The notes under the pieces were generated by a model. That model saw only the letters and a list, made by a program, of their open reading frames with translations, had not been told where the DNA came from and searched no databases. From Pseudomonadota bacterium (lineage in GTDB: Bacteria; Pseudomonadota; Gammaproteobacteria; Burkholderiales; Burkholderiaceae_C), in contig JAZKFI010000036.1 in NCBI GenBank assembly GCA_040386575.1, forward strand, positions 37,716 to 101,715: a stretch of 64,000 nt of DNA, written 5' to 3'. Below, piece after piece: positions 16,973-17,680 of the stretch; position 1 is the first letter of the stretch, and each line of letters begins with the position of its first letter. Both the position numbers and the translations under genes were made by a program.

Positions 16973-17680
16973 TCAGTGAAACGATCCCACCAGCGCCTTG
17001 AGGATCAGCGCCCACCCGTCGACCAGCACGAACATCAACACCTTCAGGGGGAGCGCTACCGTTGTCGGCGGCATCATGATGATGCCGGCAATCGCATCGC
17101 CCTTGACGAACTTGCTCGCGCCATCCATGGCGCCGTAGAAGCCCGCCTCCTTTTCAATCTGCTTGCGACGCCGCTGGGCTTCTGCCTGGTCGATGAAGCC
17201 CATGTTCAGGTCGGCATCGATGCTCATCTGCTGACCGGGCATGCTGTCGAGCGTGAAGCGCGCCGCCACTTCAGAGACCCGTTGCGCGCCGCTGGTCACG
17301 ACCACGTACTGCACCACGATCAGGATGCAGAAAACGATCAGGCCGATCACATAGTTGCCCCCCACCACGTAAGCGCCCACGGCGCCGATCACCTTGCCTG
17401 CATCGGCATCCGAAAGAATCATGCGCGTAGCGGCGACATTGAGAGACAGGCGAAAGAGCGTGGCGATCAGCAGCAACGACGGGAATGTCGAAAACTCCAC
17501 CGGCCGCGCCATATAGAACGTGAGCAGCAGGATCAGGAACGCAAAACTGAAGTTCGCCAGGATCAGGAAGTCCAGCAAGCCGCTTGGAATGGGCGCGAAC
17601 AGGACGACCAGCACCCCGAGCACCAATGCCACCAGCGCAATGTCGCTCTGCTTGCCGAAGAAGCGTTCGAGCGACTTCAT
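16973..17680 (-). CDS. Chimeric ORF joining an FlhA/SctV N-terminal membrane region (~200 aa) to a FliP/SctR C-terminal ~33 aa; probably a rearrangement remnant rather than a functional gate subunit
   Basis: The 235 codons start at MKSLERFF (ATGA overlap with the flhB stop). FlhA motifs are [38 protein letters not shown] and [19 protein letters not shown]. The sequence then reads [34 protein letters not shown], which matches the FliP C-terminus. Confidence 0.75.

Follow-up and report, generated by a model that had tools for sequence, protein, structure and literature searches.

An in-frame FlhA-FliP hybrid as the probable scar of a recurrent deletion in a flagellum-like cluster, with a five-gene remnant that appears to be kept under selection

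The DNA analysed here, referred to as the window, is a 64,000-nucleotide stretch from a Pseudomonadota bacterium of the GTDB group Burkholderiaceae_C (NCBI GenBank assembly GCA_040386575.1, contig JAZKFI010000036.1, positions 37,716 to 101,715). This report concerns an open reading frame (ORF) on its minus strand that joins the N-terminal membrane part of the flagellar export protein FlhA to the last helix of FliP, and that lies in a row of five genes, fliQ-fliR-flhB-hybrid-sigma. We regard it as quite probable that the ORF is the deletion scar of a flagellum-like cluster, that such scars arose recurrently and that the remnant has been kept under selection as an exapted membrane module. The five genes and the parts of the hybrid are as follows, identities being to Caenimonas sp. 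SL110, whose cluster is the closest intact relative of that in the window.

19600..19923, minus strand: fliQ (Pfam Bac_export_3, E 2.4e-24; NCBIfam fliQ; 92 % amino acid identity)
18765..19598, minus strand: fliR, 277 amino acids (Pfam Bac_export_1, E 1e-50; NCBIfam fliR above cutoff; 90 % amino acid identity)
17677..18780, minus strand: flhB, 367 amino acids (Pfam Bac_export_2, E 4e-107; 96 % amino acid identity)
16973-17680, minus strand: hybrid ORF, 235 codons, with ATG at 17680 and the stop TGA at 16973-16975
17076..17680, minus strand: FlhA-derived part of the hybrid, residues 1-201, with transmembrane helices (TM) 1-4, the cytoplasmic FHIPEP loop and the conserved KGD motif
17069..17086, minus strand: deletion joint, GGC ATC ATC AT/G ATG CCG (the stroke marks the joint), from a three-way nucleotide comparison of the window, SL110 flhA and SL110 fliP
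16973..17075, minus strand: FliP-derived tail and stop codon, residues 202-235, the last helix of FliP
16184..16969, minus strand: sigma-28-like sigma factor (Pfam Sigma70_r2 and r4; 88 % amino acid identity)

The probable start of fliQ is the ATG at 19866, giving a protein of 88 residues, and the autocleavage motif NPTH of FlhB is intact (residue 274). The sigma factor scores 91.7 bits against the NCBIfam model FliA_WhiG, under its cutoff of 189.6, and its gene starts 3-6 nucleotides past the stop codon of the hybrid, the same spacing as after fliP in SL110.

The ORF is a real in-frame hybrid. Residues 23-203 align to positions 1-183 of the 657-position Pfam profile FHIPEP (PF00771, E 4e-95) and residues 199-230 to positions 160-191 of the 191-position profile FliP (PF00813, E 3.5e-9, 37.3 bits, gathering cutoff 26.9 bits), so that both parts exceed the Pfam thresholds; the 34-residue tail searched alone still finds FliP (E 2e-9, 38 bits). 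Amongst the NCBIfam models, those of flagellar FlhA and FliP rank first, above their injectisome counterparts. Of FlhA/SctV the hybrid has the N-terminal membrane region and the FHIPEP loop, and of FliP/SctR the C-terminal helix that follows the Met-rich turn. TM5-8 and the large C-terminal cytoplasmic ring domain of FlhA are absent from it, the profile match ending at 183 of 657; compared with SL110 FliP, the window does not encode the signal peptide, helices 1-3 and periplasmic domain that would make a complete pore subunit. The hybrid contains 30 % of FlhA and 15 % of FliP, and scores 302.7 bits against the full-length FlhA model TIGR01398 (cutoff 772) and 42.9 bits against the FliP model TIGR01103 (cutoff 217).

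A preliminary description of this DNA, which had noticed the hybrid from the letters, is confirmed in every factual detail. Reading of the frames bears out the coupling of the 235-codon ORF to flhB, its ATG overlapping the flhB stop as ATGA at 17677-17680; the profile matches agree with the assignment of residues 1 to ~202 to the FlhA N-terminus and of the tail to the FliP C-terminus; and the observation that the window holds no full-length fliP stands, only FliP residues 196-232 being matched. No earlier FlhA-FliP hybrid had been known to that description, and we found none described in the literature either. At NCBI the hybrid proteins go by 'FHIPEP family type III secretion protein' or simply by 'FliP', names under which they could be miscounted as evidence of a secretion system.

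Comparison with the intact relative, as the preliminary description had proposed for finding the ancestor and the breakpoints, gives a direct account of how the hybrid was formed. In SL110 (loci L004 and L088, JANU01000001.1, ~60.7-85.2 kb) the gene order is fliQ, fliR, flhB, flhA (686 amino acids), flgF, flgG, flgA, flgH, flgI, flgB, flgC, fliE, fliF, a 186-amino acid gene, fliH, fliI, genes of 159 and 514 amino acids, flgD, flgE, fliM, fliN, fliO and fliP (232 amino acids), followed by the genes for the sigma factor, a TPR protein, a small protein on the opposite strand, a CesT-type protein and a protein of 568 amino acids. By blastn, the window is 87.6 % identical in nucleotides to SL110 from fliQ to flhA codon 202, and 87-91 % identical in three flanking blocks beyond fliQ; on the other side, the sigma, TPR, CesT and 592-amino acid genes and the next four genes are 81-90 % identical. 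The segment missing from the window runs from flhA codon 202 to fliP codon 199 (~16.8 kb, 19 whole genes). Amongst 21 SL110 proteins tested, only FlhA 1-203 and FliP 196-232 match the window, and neither the remaining parts of flhA or fliP nor the 19 intervening genes were found within its 64 kb. The FlhA part shows 88.3 % nucleotide and 97.5 % amino acid identity to SL110 FlhA (residues 1-200), and the tail is identical to the SL110 FliP C-terminus at 34 of 34 residues, with 92 % nucleotide identity to the fliP 3' end.

Since flhA lies upstream of fliP in the same orientation in the native order, one deletion of ~16.8 kb yields the arrangement of the window exactly. The preliminary description had held that no single deletion could lead to fliQ-fliR-flhB followed by the hybrid and that a tandem duplication was required; this rested on the order fliP-fliQ-fliR-flhB-flhA, which does not apply to this type of cluster, and a duplication is not needed because the native order is fliQ-fliR-flhB-flhA-...-fliP-sigma. 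A scan of one genome per species, from which the best 80 matches to the FlhA N-terminal part were kept (no hybrid carriers being among them), found the order fliQ-fliR-flhB-flhA in all 80 loci and a full-length flhA in 77; in none of them (~77 intact) does fliP lie directly upstream of fliQ. The ORF is accordingly best read as the in-frame scar of one ~16.8 kb deletion in a flagellin-less 'type 3' (FlhA3-type) cluster of Comamonadaceae, which has left the operon fliQ-fliR-flhB-hybrid-sigma(-TPR-CesT-592 amino acids).

The joint itself reads GCCGGCATCATCAT followed by GATGCCGCCG in the window, against GCCGGCATCATCATCTTG in SL110 flhA and GGAATGATGATGATGCCGCCG in SL110 fliP. Similarity to SL110 flhA ends and that to fliP begins at base 17076, inside the range ~17071-17085 given before. 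The joint had been ascribed to microhomology; it does lie in short runs of ATC and ATG codons, of which a 234-residue variant resembles another register, however the label is weak, as the exact flhA/fliP identity at the joint is ~2 nucleotides whereas matches of up to 11 nucleotides occur elsewhere in the two genes. The idea that the joint was placed at the best flhA/fliP microhomology was rejected on the same figures.

The hybrid has many relatives. A protein search, with clustering at 90 % identity, gave ~20 protein clusters with both Pfam domains, of which 19 are of 234-235 residues, have the same joint and are 79-91 % identical to the window protein; one comes from an isolate, Ramlibacter ginsenosidimutans (WP_201166631.1). 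The hybrid thus belongs to a conserved stand-alone family, a possibility that the preliminary description had set against its reading; the family is not unrelated to FlhA, as that possibility had it, and derives from FlhA and FliP. Every hybrid locus fetched has the module fliQ-fliR-flhB-hybrid-sigma, with flanks that vary between lineages, and the reduced loci outside the window consist of only these five genes in unrelated flanks. Separate samples yielded identical loci. A joint-specific degenerate DNA pattern searched against JGI metagenome contigs found two loci, one of them already in the set, which gave no useful estimate of abundance.

Other joints occur as well. A 409-residue form, including the isolate Ramlibacter sp. 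AN1133, joins FlhA 1-238 (through TM5) to FliP from ~62 to the end; a 171-residue form, from a Caenimonas-like metagenome-assembled genome (MAG), joins the middle of FlhA TM4 to the middle of FliP TM3; and in a 234-residue form (P0004) the joint is shifted by one codon. In two loci (L097 4531-5712, L098 1628-2815; proteins P0111 and P0104) FlhA 1-183 continues in frame into the sigma factor at about residue 47 of the latter, with no FliP tail; the joint is common to both, the module being fliQ-fliR-flhB-fusion-TPR, and the product resembles a sigma factor tethered to the membrane. In P0084 this FlhA-sigma joint is out of frame. In locus L026 (13418-13880, Ramlibacter MAG SMAG_U7143) an independent deletion, out of frame, connects codon ~115 of fliF with the final ~30 codons of fliP, and no sigma gene is detectable downstream of it. 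Four separate deletions have their right-hand ends inside the final ~55 codons of fliP.

Two members of the protein set call for separate comment. P0015 (263 amino acids, from an ENA contig of 960 nucleotides) is a hybrid with a 28-residue insertion in the FHIPEP loop that partly repeats the adjacent sequence (…GAGRVAEG…), either a small tandem duplication or an assembly error. The 90 % cluster P0002 has members labelled Ralstonia pseudosolanacearum (several NCBI accessions, 200 amino acids) and one from the eukaryotic protein set of Dinobryon divergens; these are probably contaminant or misassigned Comamonadaceae sequences.

The ratio of non-synonymous to synonymous substitution rates (dN/dS, Nei-Gojobori) was obtained for three Ramlibacter loci (L003, L092 and L093; dS 0.3-0.6), which very probably inherited the deletion, because the joint and both flanks are shared amongst them. 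The ratio is 0.03-0.05 for the hybrid, FlhA part and tail alike, 0.06-0.10 for fliQ, 0.18-0.21 for fliR, 0.14-0.19 for flhB and 0.14-0.20 for the sigma gene, the flanking genes giving 0.09-0.31 for comparison. The tail shows 13/2, 8/1 and 6/2 synonymous/non-synonymous changes in the three pairs (binomial P ~5e-6 for 13/2). Thirteen pairs of intact loci fall in the same ranges, with no relaxation visible in the reduced clade, and FlhB is of full length with NPTH in 9 of 9 reduced loci examined. Between the window and SL110 the ratios are 0.023 for the FlhA part, 0.035 for flhB, 0.11 for fliR, 0.07 for fliQ, 0.14 for the TPR gene and 0.18 for the 592-amino acid gene, and the tail has 8 synonymous and no non-synonymous differences; this divergence may in part be older than the deletion. 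Judged by these substitution patterns, purifying selection on the five genes is, where the scar was inherited, no weaker than it is in intact clusters. The conserved charged residues of the FlhA loop and the KGD motif are invariant in the alignment of the hybrid proteins. In FliP the Met-rich turn has a role in the pore; the Met residues it contributes at the joint have been replaced by Val or Leu in the Ramlibacter clade, which fits a lost pore role together with a retained hydrophobic helix.

The membrane topologies of FlhA and FliP are known from published work, and hydropathy combined with them suggests that the product would be a five-helix inner-membrane protein comprising FlhA TM1-4, the cytoplasmic FHIPEP loop and the last helix of FliP, which would take the place of FlhA TM5 and run, like it, from inside to outside. 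On such predicted topologies, all four in-frame types of joint appear to preserve membrane topology: the 235-residue joint leads from a cytoplasmic loop into an in-to-out helix, the 409-residue joint from a periplasmic loop into an out-to-in helix, the 171-residue joint from mid-helix to mid-helix in the same direction, and the sigma fusion from a cytoplasmic loop into a cytoplasmic sigma factor. An in-frame end at the native fliP stop, 3-6 nucleotides before the sigma start, would also keep the sigma gene translationally coupled, as suggested by the fact that the sole out-of-frame deletion is without sigma and that the tail-less form fuses sigma in frame.

What such a remnant might do can be narrowed from the genes it lacks. 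Within the window the genes of a functional export apparatus, namely fliP, full flhA, fliI, fliF and those of the rod and hook, are absent, and the module cannot be a protein-export gate or machine because FliP, the FlhA C-terminal domain, the ATPase, the MS and C rings, the rod and the hook are deleted. We infer that the five genes probably form a maintained, exapted membrane module. Speculatively, the hybrid would form, together with FlhB, FliQ and FliR, a residual membrane complex, and a regulatory or membrane-associated role tied to the sigma factor seems more likely than export. In a further reading, which we judge somewhat less likely than not, the remnant would be a functional membrane module to which a flagellin-less flagellum-like machine has been reduced convergently on at least three occasions, its export-gate proteins assembling without FliP into a minimal unit for signalling or for control of the sigma factor. 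If so, the membrane domain of FlhA with FlhB, FliQ and FliR would be active in its own right beyond the export of proteins. Ion conduction in the export engine is commonly assigned to the membrane part of FlhA, and these loci would be a natural experiment that isolates it, along with FlhB, FliQ and FliR, from the rest of the apparatus.

Several points weigh against the main interpretation, that of a deletion scar kept under selection. The AlphaFold2 model of the hybrid, from an alignment of 19 sequences, is poor (predicted local distance difference test score, pLDDT, 47.6), which is why the five-helix topology rests on hydropathy and published topologies. The canonical gate is FliP5Q4R1; with no FliP there is no such gate, and a role of FliQ, FliR and FlhB in its absence is without structural precedent. 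The dN/dS argument assumes that the deletion was inherited in the three Ramlibacter loci, which is likely, although deletions are demonstrably recurrent. The remnant could be maintained through gene conversion from an intact paralogous cluster elsewhere in a carrier genome, or such a cluster could draw on its products; and that the hybrid is translated is deduced only from the signal of selection. Lastly, the phylogenetic trees considered below are neighbour-joining trees of two proteins, in which the placement of one locus (L084) is weak (56/100).

The alternative that fares best is that the hybrid has no protein function and serves only as a translational bridge, delivering ribosomes to the sigma start and avoiding polarity and toxic misfolded products. 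It has in its favour that the distance from stop to sigma start is 3-20 nucleotides in all loci, as between fliP and sigma in SL110, that all surviving in-frame joints preserve membrane topology, and that the sole out-of-frame deletion lost sigma while loci without the tail have sigma fused in frame instead. A bridge needs an open frame only, however, and the dN/dS of 0.03-0.04 in the FlhA part, equal to that of functional FlhA, is left unexplained, as is the constraint on FliQ, FliR and FlhB; we consider this alternative unlikely.

Slightly less likely still is that the hybrid and its neighbours are a neutral, recent relic that has not yet decayed, their conservation reflecting only that of the parental flhA 5' and fliP 3' ends. 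Both parental regions are indeed very conserved in intact clusters, the low dN/dS of the window against SL110 could largely pre-date the deletion there, and out-of-frame and frameshifted relatives exist (P0056, P0058, P0084 and L026). Nevertheless, in the Ramlibacter clade that shares the joint and flanks the hybrid has accumulated 69 synonymous and 10 non-synonymous changes (P ~3e-29 under neutrality), none of the five genes there has a frameshift or stop, and constraint equals that in intact clusters. The FlhA-sigma fusion, too, has stayed in frame at a dS of 0.93, with dN/dS 0.14 in the FlhA part and 0.34 in the sigma part.

Whether the deletion recurred or spread is addressed by the phylogeny of the neighbouring genes. 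It is an improbable reading that the 235-residue joint arose once and was spread by horizontal transfer or homologous replacement of intact clusters, although a codon-identical joint in several lineages is hard to obtain by chance and microhomology at the joint is minimal. In a bootstrapped neighbour-joining tree of FliR and FlhB (100 replicates), the window groups with intact SL110 (100/100), locus L086 with the intact locus L006 (100/100), and the R. ginsenosidimutans (L003) clade and the 409-residue locus are nested amongst the intact loci of Ramlibacter humi and Ramlibacter pallidus (100/100), the reduced loci being monophyletic in 0 of 100 replicates. The FlhA-derived DNA of each hybrid is nearest to intact genes and not to other hybrids, and no hybrid allele is common to the lineages. 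Next to the joint, the window matches SL110 at 108 of 120 nucleotides before it and 91 of 99 after it, the other hybrids at 95-102 and 73-80, and the chromosomal context of the window is likewise that of SL110; the one-codon shift of the 234-residue form and the other joints show that the process recurs. As a 17 kb deletion cannot revert, these sequence relationships point to at least three origins of the 235-residue joint by parallel deletions in Caenimonas/Ramlibacter-like lineages, that in the window being the best supported. The joint would then recur because selection acted on rare deletions, and not because a strong mutational hotspot produced it.

The duplication proposed in the preliminary description, in which a tandem copy of a segment from fliP to flhA created the junction and later deletions removed the extra copies, has very little probability left. 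It could formally give the FlhA-FliP joint were the ancestral order fliP-fliQ-fliR-flhB-flhA, and three Oxalobacteraceae loci do have fliP ~3 kb upstream of fliQ, with the sigma and TPR genes between. The closest intact relative, however, has flanks identical to those on either side of the window's cluster, its flhA precedes fliP with both genes pointing the same way, at least three events would be needed instead of one deletion, and the window contains no duplicated remnants. An assembly chimera at the joint, which comes to mind because the window belongs to a MAG (MES2635146.1), can be practically dismissed, as the same joint occurs in isolate genomes and many independent assemblies and synteny with SL110 is perfect on both sides of it.

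Reading the hybrid as a deletion scar places it amongst known kinds of event, being a variant of deletion scars and of flagellar export genes kept by non-flagellate bacteria; the repeated codon-identical and topology-preserving joint and the strong purifying selection on the five-gene remnant set it above ordinary scars. Loss of flagellar genes is common and the remnants are usually regarded as decaying junk. In contrast, independent lineages here have cut the same 17 kb at the same codon and keep the same five genes under selection.

The nearest functional parallel is Lysobacter enzymogenes OH11, which is without flagella and keeps flhA, flhB, fliQ, fliR and a FliA-type sigma factor (PMC7277350; PMC7688988); flhA, flhB and fliR are needed for its type IV pilus twitching, fliP and fliQ are not (PMC7277350). 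In Lysobacter, FlhA, FliP and FliI are retained at full length and flagellin is still exported (PMC7277350; PMC7688988), whereas in the window the FlhA C-terminal domain, nearly all of FliP, the ATPase and all ring and rod genes are deleted and a hybrid has formed. By analogy, Lysobacter offers a precedent for the remaining gate proteins acting in a way that does not depend on FliP. Fused FliR/FlhB (NCBIfam NF009411) also unites neighbouring membrane components of the export gate in one polypeptide, however it consists of two complete proteins with export kept, not of two fragments joined across a 17 kb deletion. Amongst otherwise flagellate groups, Xanthomonas fuscans is described as having lost motility genes by deletions within its flagellar cluster, the abstract giving no recurrent in-frame hybrid under selection (PMC3826837). 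Ramlibacter species move by type IV pili (PMC3164672, PMC11847603). The Hrp2-type type III secretion system reported in Ramlibacter tataouinensis was considered and is unrelated to the cluster of the window.

The parent cluster is compact, with ~30 genes for hook, rod, L/P-ring, MS-ring, C-ring and export components, and also encodes its own sigma-28-like factor, a TPR protein, a CesT-like chaperone and a protein of 568-592 amino acids. No flagellin, hook-filament junction, cap or stator genes were found within it (SL110; also loci L014, L020, L022, L038, L045 and L077), and it could be a secretion device instead of a motility organelle. It is conserved across Burkholderiales, and its layout from fliQ, fliR, flhB and flhA to fliP and sigma is also seen in loci of Ralstonia, Paraburkholderia, Acidovorax, Variovorax, R. 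humi and R. pallidus. The latter two carry the cluster, yet a review names just two Ramlibacter species with fliC, and R. humi, R. pallidus and R. ginsenosidimutans are not amongst them (PMC11847603). In Xylophilus sp. ASV27 a third, candidate flagellar system (FlhA3) has been reported, with flgA-I, flhAB and fliAEFHIJMNOPQR; no flagellin could be identified in it, and its FlhA is placed as sister to the flagellar class (bioRxiv 10.64898/2026.02.05.703958). This 'type 3' system of Xylophilus sp. ASV27 and KACC 21265 is of the type of the parent cluster, locus L080 being that of ASV27 with the same fliQ-fliR-flhB-flhA layout; the preprint deals with intact clusters only and does not mention deletion derivatives or hybrids (bioRxiv 10.64898/2026.02.05.703958). 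The window keeps both ends of the 'type 3' layout in the right order and with SL110-like flanks while the middle is gone, and its cluster is a deletion derivative of the little-studied, flagellin-less 'type 3' cluster and not a member of it.

The remaining features around the operon in the window are listed below.

19924..20079, no strand: AT-rich intergenic region upstream of fliQ (42 % guanine plus cytosine (GC) against 64 % for the window), homologous to the SL110 region upstream of fliQ
15053..16156, minus strand: TPR protein (Pfam TPR_19 and related families), syntenic with the SL110 370-amino acid TPR gene
14640..15050, plus strand: small conserved gene with no assigned function, 80 % amino acid identity to the SL110 142-amino acid gene in the same position
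13998..14459, minus strand: CesT-family chaperone-like gene (Pfam CesT, E 2.9e-8), syntenic with SL110
12204..13982, minus strand: gene of a 592-amino acid protein, last of the cluster and 3' of the chaperone gene, syntenic with the SL110 568-amino acid gene

The AT-rich spacer upstream of fliQ, which the preliminary description had taken for the vacated place of fliP, is real as to its composition; it is, however, the native start of the cluster and not the site of fliP loss. Within it lies a perfect 19-nucleotide palindrome, TTGAACTTAATTAGTTCAA, at 19955-19973, whose SL110 counterpart is imperfectly conserved (TTGGACTAACTTAGTTCAA) and which may be a candidate operator site. A scan around the operon found no sigma-70 consensus promoter there, and the terminator-like matches around it were all intragenic and not above the shuffled expectation. 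A filter on GC content at third codon positions was uninformative for gene calling in the loci. The 592-amino acid protein has hydrophobic stretches and matches no Pfam or NCBIfam family. Its gene and the CesT-like gene (12204-14459) are the fastest-evolving part of the cluster (dS 0.86-0.97 and dN 0.14-0.16 against SL110), and the pair looks like an effector or translocator with its chaperone. Compared with SL110, the window has ~3.6 kb of extra DNA at 20051-23653, between the region upstream of fliQ and a gene for a major facilitator superfamily (MFS) transporter, that encodes response regulator, histidine kinase, TerC-family and universal stress protein genes; further insertions or deletions in the otherwise collinear flank lie at 24902-27648 (~2.7 kb) and 28838-29909 (~1.1 kb).

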